A stretch of DNA of 64,000 nt from Streptosporangiaceae bacterium (GTDB taxonomy: Bacteria > Actinomycetota > Actinomycetes > Streptosporangiales > Streptosporangiaceae), in assembly GCA_036378315.1 (NCBI GenBank), contig DASUWU010000046.1, positions 1,253-65,252 on the forward strand. The letters run 5' to 3'. Positions 4,803 to 30,826 of this stretch are shown here, piece by piece; position 1 is the first letter of the stretch, and every line of letters starts with the position of its first letter. The notes beneath the pieces are model-generated. The model searched no databases and was not told the origin of the DNA. It worked only from the letters and a program-made list of their open reading frames with translations. The position numbers were made by a program, and so were the translations under genes.

Positions 4803-4842
4803 CACCGGCGCACCGCACCGGTGACGGTGCGGTGCGCCGGTG
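4803..4842 (+). terminator. Intrinsic terminator-like hairpin after the sigma gene
   Basis: Perfect 17-bp inverted repeat caccggcgcaccgcacc / ggtgcggtgcgccggtg with the 6-nt loop ggtgac, followed by ttcgttcg. Confidence 0.7.
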
Positions 4843-4909
4843 TTCGTTCGCGCCGGTGTAGGCATCTGGTTCGGTGATCTTCGGGGGTTGTTCCAGCGGT
4901 CAAGTGAGG

Positions 4910-4943
4910 TTAGGTTAAGCTAAGTTAGGTAAACCTAACTAGC
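4910..4943. promoter_or_regulatory. IdeR/DtxR-type iron box(es) upstream of efeO
   Basis: TTAGGTTAAGCTAAGTTAG (4910-4928) matches the remembered IdeR consensus TTAGGTTAGGCTAACCTAA at 15 of 19 positions by my count. A second overlapping half-palindrome TTAGGTAAACCTAA lies at 4925-4938. This is an A/T-rich island 35-65 nt before the efeO ATG. Confidence 0.65.
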
Positions 4944-4976
4944 CTCTGTCCACCCGTCCGGCCGACTGGAGAACCC

Positions 4977-15483: not shown

Positions 15484-15508
15484 GTTCAGTACATTAAACA
15501 CCTGAACA
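15483..15508. promoter_or_regulatory. Inverted repeat at the TetR start, candidate autoregulatory operator
   Basis: TGTTCAG tacattaaacac CTGAACA, unusually A/T-rich for this DNA. Confidence 0.45.
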
Positions 15509-15591
15509 GCGCGATGCAAGAGACCTGGTCACACCCCATCGTCCGAGTGCTGACAGGCCTGGCGTCGTGGCGTGCCGGGAATGACCGCCGG

Positions 15592-18075
15592 TCAGTCGAT
15601 CGCCTGCCGGGTGAGGGCGGGCGGGCGGCGGGTGGGCAGGAGCCAGGCCGTGGCGGTGGCGAGCAGCGGGACGCCGGCCACGGTGGCGACGAGGCTGAGC
15701 ACGGGAACGTGGCTCAGCATGCCGAGATGCCGCACGTACGCGCCGAACAGGGCCAGGTAGGCACCCATGGTGCCGAGCAGCGCGCCCAGCAGGGCGAGCC
15801 CGCCCGCGGTGGCGGCCGCGAGCGTCCGGCGGATCGAGCCGGTCGCGCCCGTGGCGATGAGGGTGCGCAGGTCGCGTGCGCTCTCGCCGCGGATGAGTCC
15901 CACGGTCATGGCGAGCACGCCCAGGGCCACCAGTGCCCCGGCGATCGTCGCGACGGTACGGACCGTCGCCAGCGAGCGTTGTTCGTCCCTGCTCTCGAGC
16001 GTCAGGCCCGCGTTGACGGACATGTGCTTGGCCGCCGTGATCTGCGCGGCGGTGAGCGGTTGGTCCGCCTCGATGAGCCAGCCGACCGGCGCGGCCTGCC
16101 AGCCCGCGCGGCGTAGCCCGTACGGGGTGATGAGCGTGCTCGGGCCTGAGGAGTAGCGCGGCACGTCGACGTGCTCGGTGCGCGGCGTGGGGGCGTCGCG
16201 CGCCGCGTTGACGTAGCTCAGCGGGCCCGGCTGCGAGGTGAGGACGTCGACGTCGGGCCGGGGGGTGAGGCGGAGGCGCCGGAGCAGGTCCGGGGTGGCG
16301 ACGTAGACCATGCCGACGTCGCGGAAGCTGTTCGACCCCACGTGCCTGCCGAGCCCGATCATCGGGCGGACCGCCTTTCCGTGCGATGTTTCCCGGTCCT
16401 CGTCGCCGACGGCGGCGTACAGGGCGACCACGCTGGAGTGGGGGAGCGTGGCCGCGAACCGGTCGACCTGGGACCGCAGGCCGGCCACCTGCGCGGGCGT
16501 ACGTTCCGGGACGACGGGGCCTGTGGTGCCGATGCGCACCAGTAGCTGCCGGTCCGACAGGTTGCCCTCGGCGGCCGGATGCTTGGCGGTGGTCGCGATG
16601 ATGGCGACGGCCACCGCCATCCCGAGGGCGAGGCTGATGGCGGCGAGCGCAGCGGCCGATCGTGCCTGGTAGCGGACCAGGTCGCGGAACGCCAACCGGA
16701 CCGCGACGGGGAGCCGCGACCCGCTCCCGCCGAACACGCGGACCGCGAGCGGGCCGGCGAAGAGGATCCCGAGGGCGATGGCGATCGTGCCGGCGAGGAA
16801 CAGCGGCGGGTTGGCGTGGTCCTTGGCCGTGTCGACCCCGAGCGCCAGACAGCCGACGCCGGCCATGAGGAGGAGGACGGCGGCGATGGCCGGGCGATGC
16901 GCCTGCTTCGGCCGCGGCGGCCGCGCGGACAGGGCCCGCACGATCGGCACGCGCGCCGCGGTCCTGGCCGGCCACCAGGCGGCCGCGGTGGCCGTCGCGA
17001 CGGCGAGGACGACGTCGGCTCCGATGATCGCCCAGGGGACGGCGAGGCGGTCGATGCGATGCCCGGCCGCCGGCTCCAGCCACGGGGCGCCGGCGAACCA
17101 GCCGGCCAGTCCGGCGGCCGTCCCGATCAGCGCGGCGATGCCGCCGATCAGCGCGCCGCCCGCCAGCATCACCAGGCGCAGGTGCCGCGCGGTCGCGCCG
17201 ATCGCGGCGAGCATGCCGAGCTGGCGCAGGCGGCGTTGCGCCACGACGGCGAAGCCGGCGGCGGCGATGAACGCGACGAGGAGGAGGGTCAACGTGGTGG
17301 CCGCGAACGCGACCAGGGCCGCGGCGCCGTTCTCCGTCCGTCCGCGCTCCCGCACCGTCGGCCGCGCCCCGCCCGCGCCGCGGAACGACGCGACCCGCTC
17401 GGCGTCCGCCCGCACCAGGATGGTGGTCGATTCGGCCCGTGCATGAGCCTGCGGCGCCACCAGGGCGAACGTGTCGCTCAGGTCGCTGGGATTCTCGACG
17501 GTCCCGACGACGGTCAGGCGGCTGCCGGCGAGGACGAGCGACCGCCCGAGGCCGGTATCGAAGAGGCTCGCAGCGTGATCGGTGAGCGCGACCTCGCCGG
17601 GCCGCGCCGGATAACGTCCTGCGCGCAGGCGCAGCATCGGCCGGCCGTACGGGCCGTGCGGGTCCTGGGCTCGTACGTCGACGGTCTGGATCGACCCGGG
17701 AACCGGCGCTGCGGCGTGATTGATCACATCGATGGTGCCGAACCACTTCCGGGCGGCGGCGATGCCGGCGTCGCCGGGACCGTCGAGCTGGATGCGCGCC
17801 GTGGCCGTGCCGAAGTCGGCGGCGCGCAACGGGACCATGTTGGAGGCGACCGACGCGCTCAGCACGGCGGCCGTGACGGCCAGGCCGAGCAGCCCCAACG
17901 TCAGGATCTGCTGCCGCCAGTCGCGGCGGAACAGCCGCCAGGCCCAGCGGACCAGCGCCCGGCGGGCCGCGACACCCCCATGGCCGCGTCCATTCCCGCG
18001 CCACCCGCCGGTGGCGGGCCGGGCCGCGTGCTCCCTCGTGCCTGCGCTCATGCCTGTGCTCATGCCTGCGCTCAT
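15592..18075 (-). CDS. FtsX/MacB-type ABC permease (two FtsX domains)
   Basis: 827 aa from the ATG at 18075, which overlaps the ATPase stop (ATGA). There are two blocks of 4 TM helices separated by large extracytoplasmic regions, as in DevC/MacB-like permeases. Confidence 0.8.
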   Translation of the reverse strand: MSAGMSTGMSAGTREHAARPATGGWRGNGRGHGGVAARRALVRWAWRLFRRDWRQQILTLGLLGLAVTAAVLSASVASNMVPLRAADFGTATARIQLDGPGDAGIAAARKWFGTIDVINHAAAPVPGSIQTVDVRAQDPHGPYGRPMLRLRAGRYPARPGEVALTDHAASLFDTGLGRSLVLAGSRLTVVGTVENPSDLSDTFALVAPQAHARAESTTILVRADAERVASFRGAGGARPTVRERGRTENGAAALVAFAATTLTLLLVAFIAAAGFAVVAQRRLRQLGMLAAIGATARHLRLVMLAGGALIGGIAALIGTAAGLAGWFAGAPWLEPAAGHRIDRLAVPWAIIGADVVLAVATATAAAWWPARTAARVPIVRALSARPPRPKQAHRPAIAAVLLLMAGVGCLALGVDTAKDHANPPLFLAGTIAIALGILFAGPLAVRVFGGSGSRLPVAVRLAFRDLVRYQARSAAALAAISLALGMAVAVAIIATTAKHPAAEGNLSDRQLLVRIGTTGPVVPERTPAQVAGLRSQVDRFAATLPHSSVVALYAAVGDEDRETSHGKAVRPMIGLGRHVGSNSFRDVGMVYVATPDLLRRLRLTPRPDVDVLTSQPGPLSYVNAARDAPTPRTEHVDVPRYSSGPSTLITPYGLRRAGWQAAPVGWLIEADQPLTAAQITAAKHMSVNAGLTLESRDEQRSLATVRTVATIAGALVALGVLAMTVGLIRGESARDLRTLIATGATGSIRRTLAAATAGGLALLGALLGTMGAYLALFGAYVRHLGMLSHVPVLSLVATVAGVPLLATATAWLLPTRRPPALTRQAID

Positions 18076-18797
18076 GCCTTCTGTCCGGGCTCGAGCAGCG
18101 ACTCGGGGCCCGCGGGCGCGACGGTCTGGTCGACCATCCGCCCGTCCCTGATGAACACCACGCGGTCGGCCCACGACGCCAGCCGCGAGTCGTGCGTGAC
18201 GACCACCCCGGCGACTCCCGACCGGCAGGCGGCACGCAACAGGCGCATCACCGCCTCGCCGTTGACGGAGTCGAGGGCGCCGCTCGGCTCGTCGGCGAGC
18301 AGCAGCTTGCGCTCGCCCACCAGGGCCCGCGCGATCGCCACCCGCTGCCGCTCTCCGCCCGACAGTTCGTCCGGGTGGCGGTCGGCCCGGTCGGCAAGGC
18401 CGAGCCGCTCGAGCACCGCGAGACCGGCCGCCCGCGCGTCCTTCGCGCCGAGGCCGTCGAGCTCCAGCGGCAGCGCGACGTTCTCGACCGCGGTGAGCCC
18501 GGCGAGCAGGTTGAAGTCCTGGAAGACGTAGCCGATCGTGCGCCGGCGCAGCCGGGCCCTGGCATGACGCGACATGGTCGACAGCGCCGCGCCGGCGACC
18601 AGGACCTCCCCGCTCGTCGGCTCCTCCAGGCTGCCGGCGATCGTCAGCAGCGTGCTCTTGCCGGCGCCGCTCGGGCCCATGACGGCCACCAGTTCGCCTT
18701 GGTGGACCGACAGATCGACCTCACGGAGCGCATGGACCTCGGCCGCGCCCGCGCCGTGCACCTTCGACACCCGGCGCAGCTCGAGCATCGTCGTCAT
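18072..18797 (-). CDS. ABC transporter ATP-binding protein (MacB/LolD-like)
   Basis: MTTMLELRRVSKVHG..., GPSGAGKSTLL, LSGGERQRVAIARAL, LLLADEPSGALD. The ATG at 18797 overlaps the padR stop. Confidence 0.92.
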   Translation of the reverse strand: MTTMLELRRVSKVHGAGAAEVHALREVDLSVHQGELVAVMGPSGAGKSTLLTIAGSLEEPTSGEVLVAGAALSTMSRHARARLRRRTIGYVFQDFNLLAGLTAVENVALPLELDGLGAKDARAAGLAVLERLGLADRADRHPDELSGGERQRVAIARALVGERKLLLADEPSGALDSVNGEAVMRLLRAACRSGVAGVVVTHDSRLASWADRVVFIRDGRMVDQTVAPAGPESLLEPGQKA

Positions 18798-19408
18798 CGC
18801 CGTGCCCCCTGACGACGTGCGGTCCGGCCCCCGGCGCCGGATGCCGGCGCGGCTGGTGCCGGTGTGGCGGGCGCGGGTGTGGCGGGCGGCGCCGGCTCCC
18901 GCAGGCGGATCTCCGCAGCGTCCAGCCACCGTACGACCCCTTCGAGCCGGAAGAGCTCGGCGTCCACGACGAGCGCCAGGCCCACGTCGCGCTCCGCGTC
19001 CTCGCCCCCGTGGGCCTTGAGCCGCGTGTACCGCTGCATCATCTCGACGAGGTGCCGGCGGTGGGCCTGGATGACCTCGCTTACGTCGACACCCGGCACC
19101 CGCAGGCTCACCAGCACCTTGATGACCAGCTCGTCCCTCGGCGGCGCCGCGCCGTCCGGAGCCCGGAGCCACCCGGTCAGCTCCTCGGTCCCGGTCGCGG
19201 TGATACGGAAGAGCTTCTGCGGACCGTCGCGGTCCGTGTCGTCGGACTCGACGAGCCCGTCGCGTTCGAGGCGCTGCAGGGTCGTGTAGACCTGCCCGAT
19301 GTTCAGCGGCCAGAGGTCGCCGGTCCTCGACTCGAACTCCTGCCGCAGCCGCAGGCCGTACGACGGGCCCTCGCTCAGCAACGCGAGCAGCGCGTGTCGG
19401 ATGCTCAT
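18794..19408 (-). CDS. PadR family transcriptional regulator
   Basis: MSIRHALLALLSEGPSYGLRLRQEFESRTGDLWPLNIGQVYTTLQRLERDGLV. The C-terminal tail is Pro/Ala-rich and repetitive. Confidence 0.9.
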   Translation of the reverse strand: MSIRHALLALLSEGPSYGLRLRQEFESRTGDLWPLNIGQVYTTLQRLERDGLVESDDTDRDGPQKLFRITATGTEELTGWLRAPDGAAPPRDELVIKVLVSLRVPGVDVSEVIQAHRRHLVEMMQRYTRLKAHGGEDAERDVGLALVVDAELFRLEGVVRWLDAAEIRLREPAPPATPAPATPAPAAPASGAGGRTARRQGARR

Positions 19409-19478: not shown

Positions 19479-20909
19479 CTAGAGCCCGATGGACTGGCGG
19501 AGGAGTGGGGCGTTGCGGCGCGCGACCGGGACCGTCTCGTGGGTGCGCGCGTCGGTGATGAGCAGCAGGGTTCCCTTGAAGCCCTGCTCCACTTCTCTGA
19601 TCCGGCCGAGGTTGACGAGGAACCGGCGGTGCACGCGCAGGAATCCCTTGTCCTGGAGTTGTTGCTCGAGGCGGTCGAGGCCGCGGGTGGCGGCCTGCAG
19701 GCGTCCTTGGTCGCTCGTCAGCCACACCTTGTTGTGGTCGGCCTCGGCGAACCGGATCTCGCGGGGATCGAGGAGCACCCACCGGTCGTCGCGCAGCGCG
19801 ATGACCCGGCTCGGCAGCGCGCGGGGCTGGGAGGAGGCGAACAGCGGGTCGCTCGACGACGCCCCGAAGGTGTCGGGAGATCCGAAGGCGGCCAGCACGC
19901 CGATCACCCTGGTACCGGTGAGCACCGGGCGTACCGAGACCCAGACGGGTGTGCCCAGGAACGGCACGAAGATCTGTGTCGATCCGGTCCAGTGCGGATC
20001 CTGCCTGGCGCGCTCGACGGCGCGCCGGGTCAGCCGCGGCAGGGTGGGCAGTTGCGGAGTCCACCGGTGGGCCGGCGCGTACGCCGGCGTATCAGCCGGC
20101 GTGCCCATCAGCGCGGCCGCCTCGCTGTTCGCGAGCACGACGTTTCCGGCCGGATCGATCGCGGCGAGCGGGGTCGCCGGCGCCAGGCGGGCGTCGGTGA
20201 GGGCGGCGGCCAGGAGCGTGCCGCTCTGGTGTGCGCGCTGCCGCAGCTTGGCCTCGGTGGCCGCGGCGACTTTGCGCAGCCACGGCAGGACGGCGTCCGA
20301 CAGCGGTGACTTCCAGCACGAGATGTTCAGGACGGCGAGCGGTTCCTGGGTGACGACGTCACGGACGGCGACGCCCGCGCACGCCCACGGATGGAAGCCG
20401 CGGCACCAGTGCTCGGGCCCCCTGACCATGACCGGGCGGTGGCTTTCCAGCGCCGTCCCCATGCCGTTCGTCCCGCTCGCCCATTCGGACCAGGTGAACC
20501 AGGGAGCGAGGTTCCGGTCCGCGGCGAGGTGCAGGATGCGCCGGCTTCCCCAGGTCGCCAGGATGCGCCCGTCGGAGTCGGCCACGGTGACCAGCCCGTC
20601 GAGGCCGTCGACCTCGCCGGCGGCGGAGGCTGCCAGGCCGCCGAGCTCGGCGAACACCACATCGTGGTCGATGGAGTGCGGGCTCATCTCGACCGCGGCC
20701 GGCGCCTGGTCCAACCCGGGGTCGACCTCGTATTCCTCCCGGCAGCGGTACCAGGACATGAGGATCTCGGGCCGGACCCCGCGGACGGCGTCCGCGCCCG
20801 CGGCGAAGCTCTCCCAGGCGGCGGTGGTCCGCCTCAGGTCGTCGTCGGCCAGTCCCGGTCCGCTCGTCGCGTGTCCGGTACCGCTCGTTCGGTCTCTCGC
20901 GCCGTTCAT
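19479..20909 (-). CDS. GAF-type sensor domain fused to a LytTR DNA-binding domain
   Basis: N-terminal ILMSWYRCREEYEVDPG plus a GAF-like core resembles AcoR-type sensory modules. The C-terminal IRFAEADHNKVWLTSDQGRLQAATRGLDRLEQQL..GFLRVHRRFLVNLGRI is a LytTR domain. Confidence 0.8.
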   Translation of the reverse strand: MNGARDRTSGTGHATSGPGLADDDLRRTTAAWESFAAGADAVRGVRPEILMSWYRCREEYEVDPGLDQAPAAVEMSPHSIDHDVVFAELGGLAASAAGEVDGLDGLVTVADSDGRILATWGSRRILHLAADRNLAPWFTWSEWASGTNGMGTALESHRPVMVRGPEHWCRGFHPWACAGVAVRDVVTQEPLAVLNISCWKSPLSDAVLPWLRKVAAATEAKLRQRAHQSGTLLAAALTDARLAPATPLAAIDPAGNVVLANSEAAALMGTPADTPAYAPAHRWTPQLPTLPRLTRRAVERARQDPHWTGSTQIFVPFLGTPVWVSVRPVLTGTRVIGVLAAFGSPDTFGASSSDPLFASSQPRALPSRVIALRDDRWVLLDPREIRFAEADHNKVWLTSDQGRLQAATRGLDRLEQQLQDKGFLRVHRRFLVNLGRIREVEQGFKGTLLLITDARTHETVPVARRNAPLLRQSIGL

Positions 20910-21079: not shown

Positions 21080-22228
21080 ATGCGGGCCGTGGTGTACCTA
21101 AAGCCCTTCGAGGTGGGAGTTGAGGAAGTCCCCGACCCGCGCATCGAGCAGCCGAACGACGTGATCGTACGGATCACGTCCTCGTGCATCTGCGGGTCCG
21201 ACCTGCACATGTACGAGGGGCGAACATTGGCCGAGCCCGGCATCGTTTTCGGTCACGAGAATCTCGGGATCATCGAGGAGGTCGGCAGCGGCGTCACCCG
21301 CCTGGAGCAGGGTGACCGCGTCGTGATGCCGTTCAACGTGGCCTGCGGATTCTGCAAGAACTGCGTGGCCGGCCGTACCGGATTCTGCCTCACGGTCAAC
21401 CCGTCGGGCTTCGCCGGCGGCGCCTACGGCTATGTGGCCATGGGGCCGTATCCCGGCGGCCAGGCCGAATACCTGCGGGTGCCCTACGCCGACTTCAACT
21501 GCCTGCCGCTGCCGCCGGGCACCGAGCACGAGGCCGACTACGCGCTGCTCGCCGACATCTTCCCGACCGGGTACCACGGCTGCGAGCTCGCCGACGTCTC
21601 GCCAGGGGAGACGGTGGCCGTGTACGGCGCCGGGCCCGTCGGGCTGATGGCCGCGTACTCCGCGCAGCTCCGCGGGGCCTCCCGGGTCTTCGCCGTCGAT
21701 CGCGTGCCCGAGCGGCTCGCCAAGGCGCGGGAGATCGGCGCGATCCCCATCGACTTCTCCCAGGGCGACCCGGTCGAGCAGATCCGGGAGCAGACCGGCG
21801 GCGAAGGTACCGACAAAGGCATCGACGCGGTCGGGTACCAGGCGCTCACGCGGACCGCCGATCGTGAAGACCCGGCCACGGTCTTGAACCAGCTCGTACG
21901 GACCGTGCGCCCGACGGGCGCGCTCGGCGTCCCCGGCCTGTACGTGCCCGCCGACCCCGGCGGGGTCGACGAGCACGCCAGGAAGGGGATGTTGCGGGTC
22001 GCGATCGGCGCGCTGTTCGAGAAGGGACTGCGCGTGGGCACCGGGCAGGCGAACGTCAAGCGCTACAACCGGCAGCTGCGCGACATGATCACCACGGGCC
22101 GGGCCACGCCGAGCTTCGTGGTCTCGCACGAACTTCCGCTCGCCGACGCACCCGACGCCTACCGGAAATTCGACCAGCGCGTGGATGGCTACACCAAAGT
22201 CATCCTCAAACCCGACTCCATCCCATGA
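21080..22228 (+). CDS. fdhA: Zn-dependent, glutathione-independent formaldehyde dehydrogenase-like ADH
   Basis: ICGSDLHMYEGR, GHENLGIIEEVG, FNVACGFCKNCVAGRTGFCLTVNP..AGGAYGYV..GGQAEYLRVPYADFN and FPTGYHG closely track Pseudomonas FdhA as I remember it. Confidence 0.8.
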   Translation: MRAVVYLKPFEVGVEEVPDPRIEQPNDVIVRITSSCICGSDLHMYEGRTLAEPGIVFGHENLGIIEEVGSGVTRLEQGDRVVMPFNVACGFCKNCVAGRTGFCLTVNPSGFAGGAYGYVAMGPYPGGQAEYLRVPYADFNCLPLPPGTEHEADYALLADIFPTGYHGCELADVSPGETVAVYGAGPVGLMAAYSAQLRGASRVFAVDRVPERLAKAREIGAIPIDFSQGDPVEQIREQTGGEGTDKGIDAVGYQALTRTADREDPATVLNQLVRTVRPTGALGVPGLYVPADPGGVDEHARKGMLRVAIGALFEKGLRVGTGQANVKRYNRQLRDMITTGRATPSFVVSHELPLADAPDAYRKFDQRVDGYTKVILKPDSIP

Positions 22229-22346: not shown

Positions 22347-22811
22347 ATGGCGACCCCCACCGACGATCGATCCCAACTGGTAAGCAAGTTGGGGCTGGAC
22401 CGGCAAAACGGGGCGGCGCTGGGCCGAGTGCTGGCCACGGGAAACATCGGTGAGGCCGAGGAGGGGCCCGACGGCCGCATGCGGGCCACCATCCGGATCA
22501 AGCCGGACGAGCTGGTCTACGACCCCTCGGTCCTCATCCTTCCCCATGGTGGTGACCTGGATATCGAGATCATCAACGATGACCTCAACACGCATTGCGC
22601 GCTCTTCCCGAGCAATGGCGACAGCCAGTTCATCTGGCTGGTGAACCATTCTCGGGGAACGGCGAGCATCAATCTCGACGGCCCGGGCTACTACTGGTAC
22701 AGCTCCCCCACAGGAAACGACGAAGGCCGGGGTCTGACCGGTGCCATCGTCGTGCTCGGGGAAGTTCCGCCGGAAGCCCGCCTCGACCGTCCGCAGCAGC
22801 CACGACCGTAG
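22347..22811 (+). CDS. Cupredoxin-like small protein associated with the PQQ dehydrogenase (no signal peptide)
   Basis: RBS aggaggt lies 7 nt before the ATG at 22347. The beta-rich sequence runs RATIRIKPDELVYDPSVLILPHGGDLDIEIINDDLNTHCALF...GYYWYSSPTGNDEGRGLTGAIVVLG. It ends 13 nt before the dehydrogenase gene. Confidence 0.75.
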   Translation: MATPTDDRSQLVSKLGLDRQNGAALGRVLATGNIGEAEEGPDGRMRATIRIKPDELVYDPSVLILPHGGDLDIEIINDDLNTHCALFPSNGDSQFIWLVNHSRGTASINLDGPGYYWYSSPTGNDEGRGLTGAIVVLGEVPPEARLDRPQQPRP

Positions 22812-22824: not shown

Positions 22825-24513
22825 ATGACGGAATATGTGGACGCGGGACATGCCGTCGACTGGGGAACCCTGAGCGGGGTGCCCGGCAGCGCGCCGCCGG
22901 TGGCGCGGAATGTCGATTACCAGCGAATCCTCCAGGCCCGATCGACGGAGCCGCAGAACTGGCTCACCTATTTCGGTGCCTACGACGGGCAGCGCTACAG
23001 CCTGTTGGACCAGATCAACACCGACAACGTCCGGCGCCTCACCCCGGCGTGGGTGTTCCAGTGCGGGCCGGCCGGCCTGCAGGCGGGCGGCTCGACGTAC
23101 GCGTTCGAGGCGACCCCGATCGTGGTCGACGGCATCATGTACGTGACCGGATGGGACGGCTGGGTCTGGGCCCTCAACGCCGTGACCGGGCAGGAGCTCT
23201 GGCGCTACCACCACGCGACCCCGTTCGACACGTCGCTGTGCTGCGGCAACGTCAACCGCGGTGTGGCCGTGGCGCAGGGCAAGGTGTTCGTCGTGAGCCC
23301 CAACGCCCACGTCCTGGCGCTCGACGCCGAGACCGGCAAGTGCGTCTGGGACCGGACGAACGGCGACGTGCGGGCCGGGGAGAGCGCCACGCTCGCTCCG
23401 CTGGTCATCAAGGACAAGGTCATCGTCGGCAGCGCGGGCGGCGAGTTCGGCGTGCGGGGTCACCTCGACGCCTACGACCTGGAGACCGGGGAGCACGCCT
23501 GGCGCACCTACACCATCCCCAAGCCCGGGGAGCCGGGCTCGGAGACGTGGCCGGCGGACGGTGAGCAGTGGGCACGTGGTGGCGGGAATCCCTGGATCAC
23601 CCCCACCTACGACCCGGAGCTGAACCTCCTCTACACCGGGACCGGCAACCCGGCGCCCGACTTCGACGGCGACGTGCGCCCCGGCGACAACCTGTACACC
23701 GACTCGTGCATCGCGGTGAACCCCGACAACGGCGCGCTGGTGTGGCACTACCAGCACAACCCGCACGACCTGTGGGACTACGACAGCATCTCGGAGAACA
23801 TCCTCTTCGACCAGGGCGGTCGCAAGTTCCTCGGTCACTTCAACAAGAACGGCTACGGCTACGTGCTCGACCGCACCAACGGTGAGGTGGAGCGGGTGTT
23901 CCCGTTCGTCGACCGCATCGACTGGGGTGAGATCGACTCCAAGGGACAGATCACGGTCAAGAAGTACCCCGACAAGGAAGGGGAGCCGGTCCACTTCTAC
24001 CCGGGCCCGGGCGGCGGCAAGGAATGGACGCACGCGGCCTACAGCCCGCGGACCGAGCTCTTCTACGTCCCTGTGCAGGACGTCGGGGCGACGGCCACGC
24101 GGCGGCGCAGGGAGTTCAAGGAAGGTATCCCGTACTGGGGCGCCGGCGTCGCCGTGGACTCCGAGGGCATGGCGGGCTGCATCAGCGCCTTCGACCCGGC
24201 CACAGGTCGGGAGGTGTGGCGCTGGCGCAACGAGGTGCCGATGTGCGCGTCGGTGCTGGCCACGGCCGGCGACCTGGTGTTCGCCGGCGAACCCACCGGT
24301 GAGTTCAACGCGCTGAACGCCCGTACCGGTGAGCTGCTGTGGCAGTTCCAGTGCGGCAGCGGCCACCACAGCAGCCCGATGACCTACAGCGCCGGCGGGC
24401 GGCAGTACGTCGCCGTGCCGAGCGGCTGGGGCGGCTGGATCGAGGGGTTCGCGCCGGGCATGCTGGCCGGCACCCACGGAGCCGCGCTCTTCGCCTTCGC
24501 GCTGCCGGAATAG
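22825..24513 (+). CDS. PQQ-dependent dehydrogenase, methanol/ethanol family, lanthanide-type signature
   Basis: RBS gaaaggag before the ATG at 22825. Motifs seen: NWLTYFGAYDGQRYS, vicinal Cys TSLCCGNVNRG, GGGNPW, PHDLWDYDS, and propeller W-motifs. Confidence 0.92.
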   Translation: MTEYVDAGHAVDWGTLSGVPGSAPPVARNVDYQRILQARSTEPQNWLTYFGAYDGQRYSLLDQINTDNVRRLTPAWVFQCGPAGLQAGGSTYAFEATPIVVDGIMYVTGWDGWVWALNAVTGQELWRYHHATPFDTSLCCGNVNRGVAVAQGKVFVVSPNAHVLALDAETGKCVWDRTNGDVRAGESATLAPLVIKDKVIVGSAGGEFGVRGHLDAYDLETGEHAWRTYTIPKPGEPGSETWPADGEQWARGGGNPWITPTYDPELNLLYTGTGNPAPDFDGDVRPGDNLYTDSCIAVNPDNGALVWHYQHNPHDLWDYDSISENILFDQGGRKFLGHFNKNGYGYVLDRTNGEVERVFPFVDRIDWGEIDSKGQITVKKYPDKEGEPVHFYPGPGGGKEWTHAAYSPRTELFYVPVQDVGATATRRRREFKEGIPYWGAGVAVDSEGMAGCISAFDPATGREVWRWRNEVPMCASVLATAGDLVFAGEPTGEFNALNARTGELLWQFQCGSGHHSSPMTYSAGGRQYVAVPSGWGGWIEGFAPGMLAGTHGAALFAFALPE

Positions 24514-24553: not shown

Positions 24554-24589
24554 CACCATCTCGCTCTACATCACCATCTCGCTCTACAT
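24554..24589 (+). repeat. Perfect 2 x 18-bp tandem repeat just upstream of the pqqA RBS
   Basis: caccatctcgctctacat | caccatctcgctctacat, then c-ggggaggagg (RBS) and the pqqA ATG at 24609. Confidence 0.9.
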
Positions 24590-24608
24590 CGGGGAGGAGG
24601 TGACAAGC

Positions 24609-24707
24609 ATGGACATGGAGACCTGGGAGACCCCCGCTTGCGAAGAGATCAGAGTGTCCGCCGAGGCGAGCGCGTACATGAAGATCTGGGAGTACGGCGG
24701 CGACTAG
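24609..24707 (+). CDS. pqqA: PQQ precursor peptide
   Basis: 32 aa, MDMETWETPACEEIRVSAEASAYMKIWEYGGD. It fits the W-x-x-P...E-x-x-x-Y PqqA core (EASAY). The RBS is ggaggagg and pqqB-E follow. Confidence 0.85.
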   Translation: MDMETWETPACEEIRVSAEASAYMKIWEYGGD

Positions 24708-24854
24708 CCGGGCCGGGCGCCGGGCCGCGGCGGCATGGGGTCCGGCGCCCCCAGTCCGGCACGCGCGGGAAGGACGGGTCCCGGGCCCCGCGGCCCGGGC
24801 CGCGTCTCGGCGGGATCTCCGCGGGGTCCCGCCGGAGCCCGCGGCCCGGCAGCG

Positions 24855-24905
24855 GGCGTTCACAGGGCGGCGGGGTTCACAGGGCGGCGGGGTTCACAGG
24901 GCGGC
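24855..24905 (+). repeat. 3 x 17-bp tandem repeat in the pqqA-pqqB spacer
   Basis: ggcgttcacagggcggc | ggggttcacagggcggc | ggggttcacagggcggc. The repeat ends 20 nt before the pqqB GTG. Confidence 0.9.
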
Positions 24906-24924
24906 GGAAGGACGGCGGATCGGC

Positions 24925-25875
24925 GTGTGGGTGCGGGTGCTGGGATCGGCGGCCGGTGGCGGGTTCCCGCAGTGGAACTGCGCCTGCCCGTCGTGCGGTG
25001 CGGTGCGGGACGGGTCGCGGCCGGCTCGCCGGCGCACCCAGTCGTCGATCGCGGTGAGCGCCGACCGGCGGCTGTGGTTCCTGCTCAACGCCTCGCCCGA
25101 CATCCATGCCCAGATCGAGTCGTTCCCCGCCCTGCATCCGTCCGGCGGCAACCCAGGCGGCGGCCCTGTCGGCGGCCCTGTCGGCGGCCCAGGCGGCGGC
25201 CGGAAGGTCCCGCTGCGGGCGGTGGCGCTCACCGACGCCGAGCTCGACCACACGCTCGGGCTGCTGCTGCTCCGCGAGGGTGGCGGCGTCGAGCTGCACG
25301 CGACCGAGGCGGTGTACGACACACTCCGCGACGGGAGCTCGCTGCTCCGCACGCTCGAGGCGTACTGCCCTGTCGACTGGCATCCGGTCGTCCCGGACGC
25401 CGACGTGGAGCTGGGCGGCGGGCTGGCGTACCGGGCCTTCGACGTGCCCACGACGAAGCGGGCGCGGTTCGGCTCCGGCATCGGCGCCGGAAAGGGACGG
25501 GTCGTCGGCTACCGCCTCACCGGCGGGCGTGGCGGCCGGTCGCTGGTGTACCTGCCGGGCGTACAGGACCTCACGGCGGCGGTGCTCGACCAGCTGGACG
25601 GCTGCGCCTGCCTGCTGGTCGACGGCACCTGCTGGCGCGATGACGAGTTGGTCAGGCTGGGCCTGGCGGGCAAGACGGCGCGCGAGATGGGCCACGTGCC
25701 GATCGAGGGGCCGGGCGGCAGCCTCGAACGGCTGGCGCCGCTCCCCATCGAGCGCAAGATCTACATCCACATCAACAACACCAACCCGATCCTGCTCGAG
25801 GACTCGCCCGAGCGGCGCGTCCTGGAGCGGCACGGCATGGAAGTCGCCGTGGACGGGATGGAACTGCGGATCTGA
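24925..25875 (+). CDS. pqqB: PQQ biosynthesis protein B (metallo-beta-lactamase fold)
   Basis: VWVRVLGSAAGGGFPQWNCACPSC..., TDAELDHTLGLLLLRE, and IHINNTNPIL near the C-terminus. Confidence 0.92.
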   Translation: MWVRVLGSAAGGGFPQWNCACPSCGAVRDGSRPARRRTQSSIAVSADRRLWFLLNASPDIHAQIESFPALHPSGGNPGGGPVGGPVGGPGGGRKVPLRAVALTDAELDHTLGLLLLREGGGVELHATEAVYDTLRDGSSLLRTLEAYCPVDWHPVVPDADVELGGGLAYRAFDVPTTKRARFGSGIGAGKGRVVGYRLTGGRGGRSLVYLPGVQDLTAAVLDQLDGCACLLVDGTCWRDDELVRLGLAGKTAREMGHVPIEGPGGSLERLAPLPIERKIYIHINNTNPILLEDSPERRVLERHGMEVAVDGMELRI

Positions 25876-25884
25876 GGGCCATAG

Positions 25885-26577
25885 ATGACGCTGGCAATCG
25901 AGAACGAGAGCTTCCTCGCGGCGCTGCGCGCGCAGGGCCGCCGGTACCACGACCAGCACCCCTTCCACCGGAGGATGAACGAGGGCGCGCTGAGCCGCCG
26001 CCAGCTCCAGGGCTGGGCGGCCAATCGCTTCTACTACCAGGTGAATCTCCCGCGCAAGGACGCCGCCGTGGTGGCGAACTGCCCGGATCGCGAGGTACGC
26101 CGGCGCTGGATCCAGCGCATCCTCGACCACGACGGCACGGTGGACGGCGGGGGCGGGATCGAGGCGTGGCTGCGGCTGGGCCAGGCGCTGGGCCTGACCC
26201 GGGAGGAGCTGCTCGACGAGCGGCATGTCGTTCCGGGGGTACGGTTCGCCGTCGACGCCTACGTCACCTTCGCCCGTACCCGCCCGTGGGTCGAGGCGGT
26301 GGCCTCCTCGCTCACAGAGCTGTTCGCGCCGGATCTGATGGCCGAGCGGCTGGCCGCCTTCGAGCGGCACTACCCATGGATCGACCGTCAGGGATTGGCC
26401 TACTTCCGGGCCCGCCTGACGCAGGCGCCGCGCGACTCCCAGCACGCCATGCAGGTGGTCACCGAGCACTGCAGGACGGCCGACGAGCAGGCGGCAGCCG
26501 TCGCGGCGCTGTCGTTCAAGTGCGACGTGCTGTGGAGCATGCTGGACTCCATCGATCGCGCCTACCCGGACCGCTAG
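25885..26577 (+). CDS. pqqC: Pyrroloquinoline-quinone synthase
   Basis: [28 protein letters not shown] and the overall PqqC length (230 aa). Confidence 0.92.
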
Positions 26578-26579: not shown

Positions 26580-26921
26580 ATGCCGGCGCGGACCGTTGAC
26601 GATGCCGACCGCCCCCGCCTTGCCCGGCACGTCCGCCTGAGGTTCGACCGGGCGCGGGGCCGCCACGTGCTGCTGGCGCCCGAGGCGGTCTCGGTGCTGA
26701 ACGGCACGGGCGCCACCATCCTGGGTCTGTGCGACGGCCGGCGCACGGTCTCCGACATCGTGGCGGAGCTGCGCGCCGGCTACGACCGTGTGGACGGCGC
26801 CGAGGTACGGGACTTCATCGCCGGCCTTGTCACCAGGCGATGTGTCGAGGTCGGCGACGGGCCGGTAGCCGACGGACGGGTCGGCGACGGACGGGAGGCG
26901 GGGGATGGACGGACCGGATAG
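26580..26921 (+). CDS. pqqD: PQQ biosynthesis peptide chaperone
   Basis: From the ATG at 26580: RPRLARHVRLRFDRARGRHVLLAPEAVSVLNGTGATILGLCDGRRTVSDIVAEL. It overlaps the pqqE start. Confidence 0.88.
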   Translation: MPARTVDDADRPRLARHVRLRFDRARGRHVLLAPEAVSVLNGTGATILGLCDGRRTVSDIVAELRAGYDRVDGAEVRDFIAGLVTRRCVEVGDGPVADGRVGDGREAGDGRTG

Positions 26922-28041
26922 CCCGTTCGGCATGCTGGCCGAGCTCACCTATGCCTGCCCGCTGCACTGCGCGTACTGCTCCAACCCGCTCAACCTCGCC
27001 GACTACCGCGACGAGCTGACGACGGGGGAGTGGCTGCGGGTGATCGCCGAGGCCGCTGAGCTGGGGGTGCTGCAGCTGCACCTGTCGGGCGGCGAGCCGC
27101 TCCAGCGCCGCGACGTCGTCGAGATCGTCCGCGGCGCCGCCGGGCTCGGCCTGTACACGAACCTCATCACGAGCGCCATCGGCTTCTCCGCTCGCCGTGC
27201 CGAGCAGCTGCGCGCCGCCGGTCTCGACCACGTACAGATCAGCGTTCAGGCCGACGAGGCCGCCTTGTCCGACCGCCTGGCCGGCATGCCGTCGTTCGAC
27301 CGCAAGGTGGCGGCCGCCCGGCTGACGAAGAAGCTGGGCTGGCCGCTGACCCTCAACGTGGTCCTCCACCGGCAGAACATCGACCGGATCGGTCGCGTCC
27401 TCGAGCTCGCCGAGGAGCTGGACGCCGACCGCGTCGAGCTGGCCAACACGCAGTACTACGGCTGGGCCCTGCGCAACCGGGACGGGCTGCTGCCGAGCCG
27501 GGCCCAGCTCGACCGCGCCGAGACAGTGGTGCGTGCGGCTCGGGAGCGGCTGAACGGACGGATGCAGATCATCTACGTGGTCCCCGACTACTACAGCCGG
27601 TATCCCAAGGCCTGCATGGACGGCTGGGGACGGCGGCAGCTCACGGTGACGCCGAACGGCGACGTGCTGCCCTGCCCGACCGCGCATACGGTGCCGCTGC
27701 CGCGCGCCAGCGTGCGCGCGCACTCGCTGGCCTGGATCTGGCAGCGGTCACCCGCCTTCCAGCGTTTCCGCGGTACGGACTGGATGCCCGACCCCTGCCG
27801 CGGCTGCGACCGTCGCGAGCTCGACTTCGGCGGCTGCCGGTGCCAGGCGTTCCAGCTCACCGGGGACGCGGCCCGTACCGATCCGGTCTGCCATCTCTCG
27901 CCGGATCACGGAGTCGTCGCGGCGGCGGTGCGGGCCGCCAACGCGCCGGCCGCCCCGGACGCGCCGACCGGGGCGGCCGGGGACGCGCTCATCCCGCGAC
28001 CGCATCCGCGCGACGTGACCCGGCAAGGCCCACTTCAGTGA
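26905..28041 (+). CDS. pqqE: Radical SAM PQQ biosynthesis enzyme
   Basis: CPLHCAYCSN (CxxxCxxC) plus the C-terminal SPASM cysteines PCRGCDRRELDFGGCRCQA. Confidence 0.93.
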   Translation: MDGPDSPFGMLAELTYACPLHCAYCSNPLNLADYRDELTTGEWLRVIAEAAELGVLQLHLSGGEPLQRRDVVEIVRGAAGLGLYTNLITSAIGFSARRAEQLRAAGLDHVQISVQADEAALSDRLAGMPSFDRKVAAARLTKKLGWPLTLNVVLHRQNIDRIGRVLELAEELDADRVELANTQYYGWALRNRDGLLPSRAQLDRAETVVRAARERLNGRMQIIYVVPDYYSRYPKACMDGWGRRQLTVTPNGDVLPCPTAHTVPLPRASVRAHSLAWIWQRSPAFQRFRGTDWMPDPCRGCDRRELDFGGCRCQAFQLTGDAARTDPVCHLSPDHGVVAAAVRAANAPAAPDAPTGAAGDALIPRPHPRDVTRQGPLQ

Positions 28042-28094
28042 CGCCTTCAGTGACGCCTTCTGTGACGACCCTTTTGTGACGACTTCTGTGACGG
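28033..28094 (+). repeat. Five phased copies of a cttc(a/t)GTGACG(c/a) 12-mer spanning the pqqE stop to the mntP start
   Basis: cttcagtgacgc, cttcagtgacgc, cttctgtgacga, cc, cttttgtgacga, cttctgtgacgg. The pqqE TGA lies inside copy 1. The mntP start follows at 28098/28101. Confidence 0.85.
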
Positions 28095-28097: not shown

Positions 28098-28637
28098 TTG
28101 ATGATTGAGGTACTGGCTCTCGGCTTGTTTCTCAGCCTGGACAACTTCAGGTCGTCGATCGCGATCGGCACGATTCCCTTCAGATTCCGTCGCGCCATGC
28201 AGATCGCCGTCGTGTTCGGCGTCTGGGACGGCGTCGCGCCGCTGGCGGGAGGCGTGCTCGGGCACTACGTCGGCAAGATGATGGGCCCGATCGCCGAGTA
28301 CGTCGGGCCCGCGTTGCTGGGCATCTACGGCCTGTATCTTCTGTTCGGGGCGTTCAGGAAGCCGGCGCCGGATGAGATCGATCAACCATGGGTCACGCTG
28401 TTCGGCATGCCTCTTACCCTGAGCGTGGACAACCTGCTCGCCGGCGCGGGACTGGGGTTGCTCGGTTTCTCTCCCTTCATCTCGGCTTTGATATTCGGAA
28501 CCACGACCGCGGTGATGTCGCTCGTCGGGTTGTGCATCGGAAGGTTCGCCGCGCGTCTGATCCCCATGCGCCCCGACCTGGTGGGTGGAGTCTCGCTCGT
28601 CGCCGCGGCCATCGTCCTGCCAATCGTGTTCTCCTGA
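28098..28637 (+). CDS. mntP: MntP-family manganese efflux pump (DUF204)
   Basis: LALGLFLSLDNFRSSIAIG and LTLSVDNLLAGAGLG: the duplicated DUF204 motifs. About 6 TM helices. Start is TTG 28098 or ATG 28101. Confidence 0.8.
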   Translation: MMIEVLALGLFLSLDNFRSSIAIGTIPFRFRRAMQIAVVFGVWDGVAPLAGGVLGHYVGKMMGPIAEYVGPALLGIYGLYLLFGAFRKPAPDEIDQPWVTLFGMPLTLSVDNLLAGAGLGLLGFSPFISALIFGTTTAVMSLVGLCIGRFAARLIPMRPDLVGGVSLVAAAIVLPIVFS

Positions 28638-28710: not shown

Positions 28711-29238
28711 TCATGCGTGGTGCCGGCACCCGCGTGGGTCGAGGCGGAGCCTGCCCCAGACCACCTTGCGGGACGTGTGGTCCTGGACGGCCGTGGACTC
28801 CGTGCCGTCCGTGGGGTACCAGCCCCAGCCGTCGCAGAGGGTCTCGACGAGTAAGAGGCCGCGGCCGCCTTCGGCGTCGATGCCGGGAGTCTGCGGCACC
28901 GGCGGGTCGCCGCTCCGGTCCCCGACCTCGATCAGCAGGTGCGACCGTGCGTCCGAGGACAGGCGCAGCCGGACCTGCCCGAGCGCGGCCATGTCGAGGG
29001 AGCAGCGTGCCGCCGGGCAGCGGTCGTGCCGGCGCCGCTCGTCTTCGGCGAGCAGTACGGTGGCGTTCGCGGCATTCGTCACCAATTCGGACACGACGAG
29101 CTTCACCCGGTAGACGAAAGTCTCGTCCCGGCCGAGCCGCCAGTAGCGGAGCAGTTCTTCGGTGTGGCGCCGCGCCCGGTACGCGGCATTGGGCATCGCC
29201 GCCAGGGGAAGTTCATCGTGCAGGGTCCACGGTGTCAT
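28711..29238 (-). CDS. HATPase_c-type ATP-binding protein (SpoIIAB/anti-sigma-like)
   Basis: VVSELVTNAANA ... EVGDRSGDPP ... GGRGLLLVETLCDGWGW: the N, G1 and G2 boxes of GHKL kinases found in AbaA/WhiJ-type loci. Confidence 0.8.
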   Translation of the reverse strand: MTPWTLHDELPLAAMPNAAYRARRHTEELLRYWRLGRDETFVYRVKLVVSELVTNAANATVLLAEDERRRHDRCPAARCSLDMAALGQVRLRLSSDARSHLLIEVGDRSGDPPVPQTPGIDAEGGRGLLLVETLCDGWGWYPTDGTESTAVQDHTSRKVVWGRLRLDPRGCRHHA

Positions 29239-29256
29239 CTATGTCTTCATCCGGAA

Positions 29257-29610
29257 TCAGGCGCGGAAGGACAGGCGCTCGGCGATGAGCCGGGTCGCGG
29301 TCGGGAGGTCTGAAGTCCGGCAAATGCGCTCGTTTTCCCGCTCCCACTCGAACCACGACTCGGAATGCGGGACGTGGGTGGTCCGCGTGGTCACCCGGAC
29401 CGCCTCCTCGGGGCCTTCCCCGGTTGGACGGAGCACGTAGAGGCGTGGCTGTTCGACGCCGTGCGCGCCGGGCCGCTCGTACCGCGTGGCCAGGCCGATG
29501 AGGTGGAGCGCCGATTGGAGTTCTCCCAAAAGGCGGGTCGCGACGTAAAGCGACAGGCGGTCCTCCGCGGGCAGCGCGTTGCCGAGATAAGTCAGATCAG
29601 GGGCGGGCAT
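29257..29610 (-). CDS. Hypothetical protein (117 aa)
   Basis: ATG at 29610, preceded by AAGGAG 5 nt upstream. The sequence starts MPAPDLTYLGNALPAEDRLSLYVATRLLGEL. No recognised domain. Confidence 0.55.
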   Translation of the reverse strand: MPAPDLTYLGNALPAEDRLSLYVATRLLGELQSALHLIGLATRYERPGAHGVEQPRLYVLRPTGEGPEEAVRVTTRTTHVPHSESWFEWERENERICRTSDLPTATRLIAERLSFRA

Positions 29611-29867
29611 GTCGACTCCTTGTCTCGCTCGCGTTCGAGTTGAACGGTCAGGTCGGCCACATCCCGCTCGATGAGGGTGGGGGACAGGCCGGAGGACGCC
29701 TCGACGCGGGTCAGGTGCCGGCGCCTGGTGGCGCAGATCAGGCTTCCCGCCCGGCTCGTCCAGAACGACCATTCAGGCCAGGCGCGCCGCAGTGGCTCCA
29801 AATCCGGTATGGCCGGTGTCTTGGTATGCATCGCTCCAGGAAGCCTCTCTCGGACTTTCGCCACCAT
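29592..29867 (-). CDS. Hypothetical small protein (79-91 aa)
   Basis: GAGGAG lies adjacent to the ATG at 29867; the alternative start is 29831. The motif WPEWSFWTSRAGSLICATRR...TLIERDVADLTVQLERE resembles small proteins I recall next to XRE regulators in actinomycetes. Confidence 0.5.
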   Translation of the reverse strand: MVAKVRERLPGAMHTKTPAIPDLEPLRRAWPEWSFWTSRAGSLICATRRRHLTRVEASSGLSPTLIERDVADLTVQLERERDKESTCPPLI

Positions 29868-30004
29868 GACTCCTCACTTGACGGCGGTCAACTTGCGGCT
29901 TGGATGAAACTGGCTTCTTGTCTACCCTGATCGGCGTACGCTCTGTATACGGAATCGGCCGCACTGGTAACAGTGAGTGACGGAAGATCATCCGTGAGGA
30001 GGCG

Positions 30005-30826
30005 GTGAGGCCCATGGCGCCAGTGCCCCACGAACGCCGGACCTGGCTCCACTACTGGGCGGGGGAGTTAGTCGCCTGGCGGGAGTTCCGCGGGTTGACG
30101 CAGTGCCAGCTGGCGTCCGCCATCAATTACGCGGAATCGACGGTGGCCATGATCGAAACGGCCAAGCGCAAGCCCAAGCCGGACTTCGTGCAGCGCTGCG
30201 ACGTCGCTCTCCAGACCGGCGGGGCGTTGGAGCGCCTCAAGGACGAACTCGTCGACCGCGAGCTCGTGCCCGACTGGCTCGACCGCTGGCGTCAGATCGA
30301 AGAGCAGGCCAGCGAGTTGAACTGGTTCGAGATATTCGTAATTCCTGGACTGCTCCAGACGCCGGAGTATGCTCGGGCCATCCTGGAAGCAGGACATACC
30401 AAACCCTTCGACCTTGAAGCGCAGGTGAAGGCTCGGCTCGAACGACAACTGATTCTTACCCGCGAAGACCCGCCGATGTTCGTGGCCGTGGTGGATGAGA
30501 ACGCCATTCGGCGGATGATCGGCGGCGAAAAGGTTATGTACGACCAGCTCACGCATTTGCTTGAGCTGGCAGAGCAGCCGCATATTCGGCTGCAGATCAT
30601 CCCACATGATGTGGGCGCGTACGCCGGATTGACCGGTCCGTTCGTGGTCGCCACCCTTGACGGCGATGAGGTCGTCTACCAGGAAGCGGCCCTGCGCGGG
30701 CACATCATCGAGGGTCATGAGGACGTCGCTGCCTTCAAACGCATGTGGGCGGCGTTGCGAGCCGATGCGCTTCCGCGGAAGGCATCGCTCGACCTGATTT
30801 CGGAAGTGACCAAAGAATGTACATGA
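30005..30826 (+). CDS. XRE-family HTH regulator with DUF5753-like C-domain (WhiJ/Scr1-like)
   Basis: LVAWREFRGLTQCQLASAINYAESTVAMIETAKRKP is the HTH. The C-terminal region contains PGLLQTPEYARAIL. The coding sequence is visibly less GC-rich than its neighbours. Confidence 0.85.
   Translation: MRPMAPVPHERRTWLHYWAGELVAWREFRGLTQCQLASAINYAESTVAMIETAKRKPKPDFVQRCDVALQTGGALERLKDELVDRELVPDWLDRWRQIEEQASELNWFEIFVIPGLLQTPEYARAILEAGHTKPFDLEAQVKARLERQLILTREDPPMFVAVVDENAIRRMIGGEKVMYDQLTHLLELAEQPHIRLQIIPHDVGAYAGLTGPFVVATLDGDEVVYQEAALRGHIIEGHEDVAAFKRMWAALRADALPRKASLDLISEVTKECT

Follow-up and report, generated by a model that had tools for sequence, protein, structure and literature searches.

Quinoproteins of the pyrroloquinoline quinone (PQQ)-dependent alcohol dehydrogenase (ADH) family are regarded as exclusively periplasmic enzymes, and the biochemical use of lanthanides is seen as a Gram-negative trait. 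Here, we describe a putatively signal-less member of this family with a lanthanide-type active site, encoded at positions 22825 to 24513 on the forward strand of a 64,000-nucleotide stretch of DNA from Streptosporangiaceae bacterium (GenBank assembly GCA_036378315.1, contig DASUWU010000046.1, positions 1,253 to 65,252 of the forward strand). We refer to this whole stretch as the window and use its own numbering throughout. Among the described relatives of the enzyme, XoxF is periplasmic and has a cytochrome, XoxG, and a binding protein, XoxJ, as its partners, and a 2024 study did not expect XoxF in Gram-positive metagenome-assembled genomes (MAGs) on account of its periplasmic location (PMC10875860). 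PedH of Pseudomonas putida KT2440 is likewise referred to as a periplasmic enzyme (PMC6839425).

A counterpart of the window enzyme in Mycolicibacterium smegmatis was recognized as a lone PQQ-dependent ADH clustered with PQQ biosynthesis genes (Haft, 2011; PMC3023750), and it was later described as uncharacterized and dispensable for growth on ethanol (Krishnamoorthy et al., 2019; PMC6529628). Neither of these two papers discusses localization, the lanthanide signature, the cupredoxin nature of the partner protein or the loss of its copper site, or a linkage to transporters. In a 2026 preprint, "PQQ-ADH Type 8" is grouped with the lanthanide-type enzymes and Actinomycetes are named among the phyla of the species carrying the most abundant PQQ dehydrogenases; the signal peptides that it reports are those of other proteins. 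Our literature search, whose reach did not extend to Huang et al. 2019 (ISME J) or Keltjens et al. 2014, found no description of a cytoplasmic or signal-less lanthanide-type PQQ-ADH or of a cupredoxin partner. Judging from the sequence comparisons presented below, we consider it fairly likely that the window dehydrogenase is at once cytoplasmic, of the lanthanide type, and alcohol oxidizing.

Results

The dehydrogenase open reading frame (ORF) runs from an ATG at 22825 to a TAG at 24511-24513 and encodes 562 aa, with a ribosome-binding site (GAAAGGAG) 6-13 nt 5' of the ATG. It matches the PQQ alcohol/methanol dehydrogenase model TIGR03075 with 628.6 bits (cut-off, 480.05), and the match begins at residue 29, in agreement with the initial annotation, which had placed the start of the propeller at about residue 28. 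An AlphaFold2 (AF2) model of the protein is an eight-bladed beta-propeller with a predicted TM-score (pTM) of 0.81, and Foldseek relates it to PedH (6ZCV) with a TM-score of 0.84 and to XoxF, MxaF, and ExaA with TM-scores of 0.78-0.82. By score, by fold, and by its Cys-Cys, Glu, Asn, and Asp residues, the protein belongs to the TIGR03075 family, and its D318-Y-D320 segment carries the D-x-D motif of the lanthanide subclass.

The best solved relative of the dehydrogenase is PedH (6ZCV/6ZCW; E value, 8.5e-116). The segment PHDLWDYDS supplies Asp318 and Asp320, and HMMER aligns its WDYD with the WDYD of XoxF from Methylomicrobium buryatense (6DAM) and from Methylacidiphilum SolV (4MAE) and with the WDFD of PedH (6ZCV/6ZCW), while the same column of the Ca-type quinohemoprotein ADH-IIB (1KV9) reads WDFT. 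Because the motif aligns with those of XoxF and PedH and is replaced by Thr in 1KV9, Asp320 falls in the lanthanide column, which bears out the earlier proposal that the second Asp is of the lanthanide type. This second Asp is reportedly required for lanthanide function (Good et al. 2020). The Glu of GGEFG (E207), the Asn of GNP (N275), the Cys-Cys pair, and D318 also align with the same residues in PedH and XoxF. We examined conservation in an alignment of 199 sequences comprising the signal-less clade and its diderm relatives, with 60-86% overall identity. C140, E207, N275, W317, D318, Y319, and D320 never vary, and 198 of the 199 sequences have C139, so the retention of the vicinal pair in TSLCCGNVNRG (Cys139-Cys140), previously noted for this protein, extends to its homologs. 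Since all catalytic and metal residues of XoxF and PedH are kept, including Asp320, the reaction is most likely the oxidation of methanol or another small alcohol with PQQ and Ln3+ (a trivalent lanthanide).

We assessed export signals by a Kyte-Doolittle hydrophobicity scan combined with a comparison to homologs. Within residues 1-60 of the dehydrogenase, the highest 9-residue mean is 0.67 from both possible starts, versus 2.4-3.0 in signal-bearing dehydrogenase homologs. The native N terminus contains no RR pair, and neither start yields a lipobox or a hydrophobic core. The sole in-frame extension begins 28 codons upstream at a GTG at 22741, which is not preceded by a Shine-Dalgarno sequence, and it overlaps by 71 nt the partner gene, whose stop at 22811 lies 13 nt 5' of the dehydrogenase ATG. 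The "peptide" of this extension is an out-of-frame reading of the conserved C terminus of the partner, and its two RR pairs are not followed by a hydrophobic core. The initial annotation had found no signal peptide at the native start and none in the extension, and both of these calls stand. The N-terminal export signal typical of the PQQ-ADH family thus appears to be missing from the window dehydrogenase. In the AF2 model, residues ~20-45 are packed, with a predicted local distance difference test (pLDDT) score of 84-89, and an N-terminal hydrophobic helix is absent.

The short N terminus is a trait of a clade. A scan with one genome per species detected >590 related loci, of which we retrieved 80, numbered L001-L068 for monoderm and L069-L080 for diderm loci. 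The 68 monoderm loci encode dehydrogenases 69-78% identical to the query and come from Actinomycetota (Streptomyces, Saccharopolyspora, Pseudonocardia, Amycolatopsis, Geodermatophilus, Solirubrobacterales, Rubrobacteraceae, and others), together with one Bacillota and one Chloroflexota MAG. Where the 5' end is present, these loci have a common signal-less N terminus (M..EYVDAG.A.D...LS...G.APPV...V.YERIL), which is found in about 66 of them. An in-frame stop sits 2-10 codons 5' of the Met in at least 11 related loci, which makes a hidden N-terminal extension impossible there, and public gene calls for the clade give proteins of 560-567 aa. The 12 diderm loci belong to Armatimonadota, Gemmatimonadota, Thermoanaerobaculia, and one gammaproteobacterium, and their dehydrogenases are 60-63% identical to the query. 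These dehydrogenases start with lipoprotein signal peptides (e.g., MKTIAVVSLSILLAAC followed by THYPSHPVTQ), and the actinobacterial N terminus aligns with the diderm segment after the lipobox Cys, i.e., with the mature N terminus.

A partner gene on the forward strand at 22347 to 22811, with AGGAGGTG preceding its ATG at 22347, encodes a signal-less cupredoxin of the MSMEG_3727 family. It matches TIGR04339 with 283.2 bits (cut-off, 75) and PF23509 with 272 bits, and this score and its adjacency to a TIGR03075 dehydrogenase mark it as a member of the TIGR04339 family. Wherever a locus has sufficient upstream DNA, this gene stands directly 5' of the dehydrogenase gene; the same holds for 11 of the 12 diderm loci, whose partners are 40-46% identical to the window partner. 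The diderm partners have lipobox signals (e.g., one ending in ...LLLAGC and continuing as EYARLLRP), and the diderm dehydrogenases and partners alike include a lipobox and reach maximal 9-residue values of 2.4-3.2. The actinobacterial partners have no signal, and the window partner reaches only 1.32. The absence of a signal is therefore both clade-wide and common to the partner, which argues that the missing signal is not a gene-calling accident. The two proteins appear to have lost their export signals together in the monoderm lineage. Loss, rather than gain, is the probable direction, because all other family members are exported.

The partner family comprises 164 clusters among 1.84 billion proteins, and its profile matches the T1 domain of Cu-nitrite reductase (4.8e-7), pseudoazurin (5.4e-6), plastocyanin, auracyanin, and rusticyanin. 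The top Foldseek matches of its AF2 model are all cupredoxins, with a probability of 1.0, from a model of low confidence (pLDDT, 59.6). All 11 diderm partners contain His83...Cys120-x4-His125-x4-Met130, the canonical blue-copper set, whereas 98-100% of the 66 monoderm partners read His83...Ser120-x4-Asp125-x4-Leu130 and have acquired a new Cys84 (98%) and a new Glu126 (100%). The window partner follows the monoderm pattern, with H83 kept, S120/D125/L130 in place of the other ligands, and the new C84 and E126. It thus has the cupredoxin fold, as far as the low-confidence model tells, and not the His/Cys/His/Met ligand set of a type 1 copper protein; without the Cys, the second His, and the Met, a blue-copper site cannot form. 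Among family representatives at 50% identity, a hydrophobic signal is present in all full-length proteins with the C/H/M set, and none of those with S/D/L shows a credible signal. Because bacteria generally keep available copper out of their cytoplasm, the loss of the copper ligands provides independent evidence that the pair is now cytoplasmic. Loop 119-129 of the model, which includes D125 and E126 of a putative H83/C84/D125/E126 cluster, has a pLDDT of <50. We also considered a thiol-disulfide relay from Cys139-Cys140 to the partner Cys84 and dropped it, because PQQH2 (~+90 mV) cannot reduce a disulfide (~-200 mV).

The initial annotation had reasoned that such an enzyme would need cation transport across the envelope, and the neighborhood supplies a concrete candidate. 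Directly after pqqE, a gene on the forward strand at 28098 to 28637 encodes an MntP-family membrane protein (PF02659, 87.9 bits), a candidate metal-cation transporter. An MntP-family gene is found in 34 of 69 monoderm loci (the window plus 68, i.e., 33 besides the window), and a gene of the CaCA (Na_Ca_ex) family adjoins the cluster in 24 of the 69, with both families in two loci. At least one of the two is present in 56 of the 69 monoderm loci versus 0 of the 12 diderm loci. The recurrence of two unrelated cation-transporter families in the same position beside one enzyme points to handling of the metal of that enzyme. The window protein reaches 47.6 bits against the MntP equivalog model NF008546 (cut-off, 214), and the CaCA-family protein reaches 76 bits against its equivalog model (cut-off, 180). 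Both are thus distant from characterized exporters, and their family names fix neither substrate nor direction.

The dehydrogenase is followed on the same strand by a complete set of PQQ biosynthesis genes, a linkage that would allow the cofactor to be made at its site of use with no need for export. The precursor peptide gene pqqA (24609 to 24707; MDMETWETPACEEIRVSAEASAYMKIWEYGGD, with an E-x3-Y motif) has GGAGGAGGTG on its 5' side and stands before pqqB (24925 to 25875; TIGR02108, 374.8 bits; cut-off, 245). It is followed by pqqC (25885 to 26577; TIGR02111, 336.2 bits; cut-off, 240), pqqD (26580 to 26921, with an ATG at 26580; PF05402, 46.6 bits), and the radical SAM gene pqqE (26905 to 28041; TIGR02109, 526.2 bits; cut-off, 381). 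An in-frame 12-bp repeat of 4.8 copies inside pqqB (25144-25201) encodes a Gly/Pro-rich insertion in PqqB (GGPVGGPVGGPGGG).

On the other side of the pair, a GAF-LytTR transcriptional regulator is encoded on the reverse strand at 19479 to 20909, divergent from the cluster (Pfam GAF, 31.5 bits; LytTR, 63.7 bits), and ~29 related loci have a homolog at most 6 kb away from the dehydrogenase. Direct repeats are typical LytTR binding sites. A perfect 18-bp tandem repeat, CACCATCTCGCTCTACAT, occupies 24554-24590, with two full copies at 24554-24589 (2.1 copies according to Tandem Repeats Finder). It ends 19 nt before the pqqA start, just 5' of the pqqA ribosome-binding site, and none of 100 shuffles reached 2 matches. 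The repeat at 24554-24589 is a possible regulator-binding site. Two further intergenic tandem repeats inside the cluster are a 17-bp unit in 3.5 copies just 5' of pqqB (GGCGGCGGGGTTCACAG, 24848-24907) and a 12-bp unit in 4.9 copies across the pqqE stop and the start of the MntP-like gene (CTTCTGTGACGC, 28033-28093).

Several neighbors bear on the fate of the product. Between the regulator and the partner gene, the forward-strand gene at 21080 to 22228 encodes an FdhA-like Zn-dependent medium-chain dehydrogenase (Pfam ADH_N and ADH_zinc_N). Its 355.8 bits against TIGR02819 fall below the cut-off of 637, making it a relative of glutathione-independent formaldehyde dehydrogenase rather than an equivalog. 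A gene of this kind occupies the position only in the window and in L003, where it is 87% identical. In 13 other loci, all from Solirubrobacterales-type Actinomycetota (at ~0.2-5.4 kb in L034, L035, L037, L042, L047, L048, L050, L051, L053, L054, and L056-L058), the DNA directly 5' of the pair encodes Fae (TIGR03126, 246 bits versus a cut-off of 118), a methylene-tetrahydromethanopterin (H4MPT) dehydrogenase-like protein (Mpt_N, PF09176), DUF1464, and a pterin-4a-carbinolamine dehydratase (PCD). This block implies, as a prediction from gene content, H4MPT-linked C1 metabolism in uncultured or little-studied Solirubrobacterales-type lineages. Taken together, the Fae block and the FdhA-like gene suggest that, for some of the clade at least, the enzyme converts methanol to formaldehyde.

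Other neighbors concern oxygen and electron transfer. A katG gene (753 aa in L015, with two peroxidase domains) separates the GAF-LytTR regulator from the partner gene in 20 loci from Streptomyces, Amycolatopsis, Pseudonocardia, and Kineosporia (at ~0.9-5.4 kb in L008, L009, L012, L013, L015-L024, L026-L028, L031, L032, and L065). The linkage hints that the module may produce H2O2 and makes the reduction of O2 to H2O2 a candidate electron sink. No cytochrome c partner is associated with the module, since only 1 of the 716 ORFs within 6 kb of the dehydrogenase in the monoderm loci contains CxxCH. Likewise, the annotated recurrent neighbor families include no cytochrome or periplasmic binding protein of the XoxG/PedF-like or XoxJ-like kind.

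A separate observation is that a 266-aa ferritin-like protein weakly resembling R2lox (R2-like ligand-binding oxidases; NF006200, 66 bits, below the cut-off) adjoins the cluster in 14 loci (L002, at 4567-5367, and L014, L030, L037, L044, L045, L057, L059-L064, and L066); it is a possible O2-reactive di-metal partner. Farther upstream in the window, the reverse-strand genes at 13898-18174 encode an ABC ATPase, a TetR regulator, and an 860-aa FtsX-type permease, which form a MacB-like efflux unit, and a PadR regulator is encoded at 18794-19408. These ABC/FtsX/TetR/PadR neighbors (13.9-19.4 kb) gave no lanthanide-specific lead and showed no tie to the PQQ module in the other loci. Downstream, a HATPase_c_2 protein (28711-29238, reverse strand) and an apparent helix-turn-helix ORF (30005-30826, forward strand) resemble Streptomyces WhiJ/AbaA-type cassettes, and these genes (28711-30826) are unrelated to the PQQ cluster.

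Discussion

We propose that the ancestor of this module was a periplasmic lipoprotein pair, in which a lanthanide-type PQQ alcohol dehydrogenase would have passed its electrons to a blue-copper cupredoxin. In the monoderm lineage, both proteins would have lost the signal peptide and lipobox, and the cupredoxin would also have shed its Cys, His, and Met ligands, as might be expected in a compartment without free copper. Linkage of the pair to pqqABCDE would have placed PQQ synthesis in the cytoplasm, where the cofactor is used, and linkage to a cation transporter, of the MntP type here and of the CaCA type elsewhere, could supply or balance the active-site metal. In the enzyme, E207, N275, D318, and D320 would bind PQQ together with a trivalent lanthanide, and the substrate, methanol or another small alcohol, would be oxidized to the aldehyde. 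The aldehyde would then be removed in the cytoplasm, by the FdhA-like enzyme in the window and by Fae and the methylene-H4MPT dehydrogenase-like protein in the Solirubrobacterales-type loci. We infer the cytoplasmic site, the lanthanide metal, the methanol substrate, and the import role of the transporters from sequence and gene order.

Several observations weigh against this proposal. In a cytoplasm kept reduced by mycothiol or thioredoxin, a strained disulfide between vicinal cysteines would not be expected to persist, yet the Cys pair is invariant. The cluster offers no plausible high-potential acceptor: the copper site of the partner is gone, no cytochrome c is encoded, and menaquinone sits below free PQQ in potential. 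Characterized MntP and CaCA proteins are exporters, so that import is an assumption, and the scores of the linked transporters fall far below the equivalog cut-offs. Because an FdhA-like neighbor is confined to 2 loci and Fae to 13, these genes back methanol as the substrate for parts of the clade only. The signal-peptide call rests on a hydrophobicity heuristic, not on SignalP, and our literature search returned no proteomic data on MSMEG_3726 or its homologs.

A bolder version of the proposal would have Actinomycetota (among them many Streptomyces, Pseudonocardia, Saccharopolyspora, Amycolatopsis, and Solirubrobacterales) running lanthanide/PQQ methanol or alcohol oxidation in the cytoplasm, with the cluster-linked MntP- and CaCA-type proteins as what would be the first lanthanide (or Ca/lanthanide) importers in monoderms. 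In this version, the cupredoxin, rebuilt around H83/C84/D125/E126, would serve as a metal chaperone or a new redox partner, and electrons would pass to O2 to give H2O2, which would explain katG in 20 loci. Such an arrangement might be likened to the pairing of alcohol oxidase and catalase in yeast. This bolder version strikes us as somewhat unlikely.

Of the competing explanations, the one that survives best accepts a cytoplasmic enzyme and assigns it Ca2+ or another divalent ion (Mn2+ or Mg2+), such that the extra Asp raises the affinity for a scarce ion and the transporters adjust the level of that ion. The linked transporter families are indeed named for Mn2+ and for Ca2+/Na+, the scanned parts of the window contain no LutH/LutAEF-type or lanmodulin genes, and the neighboring ABC/FtsX genes look like generic efflux. 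However, Asp320 is present in 199 of 199 sequences, in precisely the column that separates the lanthanide enzymes XoxF and PedH from Ca-type ADH-IIB, and the transporters belong to distant subfamilies whose names do not fix their substrates. We regard a divalent metal as unlikely.

It is distinctly unlikely, in our estimate, that the dehydrogenase and its partner work outside the membrane after non-classical export, whether by Tat hitchhiking, a type VII-like system, or another route. The invariance of a Cys pair that forms a disulfide in periplasmic enzymes and the extracytoplasmic location of all characterized family members speak for such export, and exporter-type cation transporters could carry the metal outward. 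On this account, however, nothing would explain why an exported electron carrier lost its copper ligands exactly where the signals are lost, and the ancestral lipobox could have stayed, as Actinobacteria make lipoproteins. No carrier of a Tat or Sec signal is found among the neighbors, the conserved ones being cytoplasmic enzymes or polytopic membrane proteins, and the formaldehyde-handling Fae and FdhA-like proteins are themselves cytoplasmic enzymes.

A partner without copper ligands and a cluster with no evident acceptor could also suggest that the dehydrogenase is a non-catalytic relic whose propeller is kept for a structural or regulatory role. This is highly improbable given that the catalytic, PQQ-site, and metal residues are invariant over 199 sequences at 60-86% identity and that the gene is in tight linkage with the full set of pqqABCDE genes. 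Barely credible is a wrong start codon or a local deletion in this genome, for although an in-frame GTG does lie 28 codons upstream, the extension has neither a hydrophobic core nor a Shine-Dalgarno sequence and overlaps the partner gene, and ~66 independent genomes have the same short N terminus, many with a stop 2-10 codons upstream and with public calls of 560-567 aa.

If the cytoplasmic, lanthanide-type assignment is correct, rare-earth-dependent metabolism would extend to soil bacteria that rank among the most abundant and to the main antibiotic producers (several hundred actinobacterial genomes). It would raise the questions of how Ln3+ crosses a monoderm membrane, how PQQH2 is reoxidized in the cytoplasm, and what function a vicinal Cys pair serves under reducing conditions. 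It would also provide engineered hosts with a PQQ/lanthanide alcohol dehydrogenase that needs no export. The apparent loss of signals from two proteins and of the copper site from one would give a clear case, from nature, of the relocation of a redox module from the periplasm to the cytoplasm.

Comparison with known systems

Neither the enzyme family nor the lanthanide signature is new. As far as we found, the predicted cytoplasmic, cupredoxin-coupled, and transporter-linked architecture and its proposed origin from a lipoprotein pair are undescribed. Among characterized enzymes, the PedH/ExaF type has in common with the window enzyme a propeller of eight blades, two adjacent cysteines, Glu/Asn/Asp as metal ligands, and the additional Asp (W-D-F/Y-D), and PedH itself is 38% identical in the structural alignment at the TM-score of 0.84. 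PedH has a Sec signal and passes its electrons to cytochrome c. The window enzyme, in contrast, has no signal and no cytochrome c neighbor, and it comes with an obligatory cupredoxin-like partner, with the pqq genes and a cation transporter in its cluster. XoxF enzymes (XoxF1-5) have the identical W-D-Y-D (6DAM and 4MAE), and the Fae and methylene-H4MPT dehydrogenase-like genes that flank the module in 13 related loci resemble those of methylotrophs. Unlike in XoxF systems, counterparts of XoxG and XoxJ are absent near window-type modules, as judged from the neighboring ORFs of the monoderm loci.

The arrangement of MSMEG_3721-3727 in M. smegmatis, where the partner belongs to TIGR04339/PF23509, matches that of the window cluster in both gene families and order. 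The lipoprotein pairs of L069-L080 are direct sister systems with the same two-gene order, the D-Y-D motif, and the Cys-Cys pair. They differ from the window module in having a lipobox on both proteins and the H/C/H/M set in the partner and in lacking adjacent pqq or MntP/CaCA genes. In one of them, L075, an upstream ORF resembles a TonB-dependent receptor by appearance. These sister systems suggest that a lanthanide enzyme may pass its electrons to a cupredoxin rather than to cytochrome c. Azurin and amicyanin accept electrons from quinoproteins in the pairs ADH-IIB/azurin and methylamine dehydrogenase (MADH)/amicyanin, and this precedent indicates the likely role of the diderm partner, whereas the window partner is without the Cys, the second His, and the Met of that copper site.

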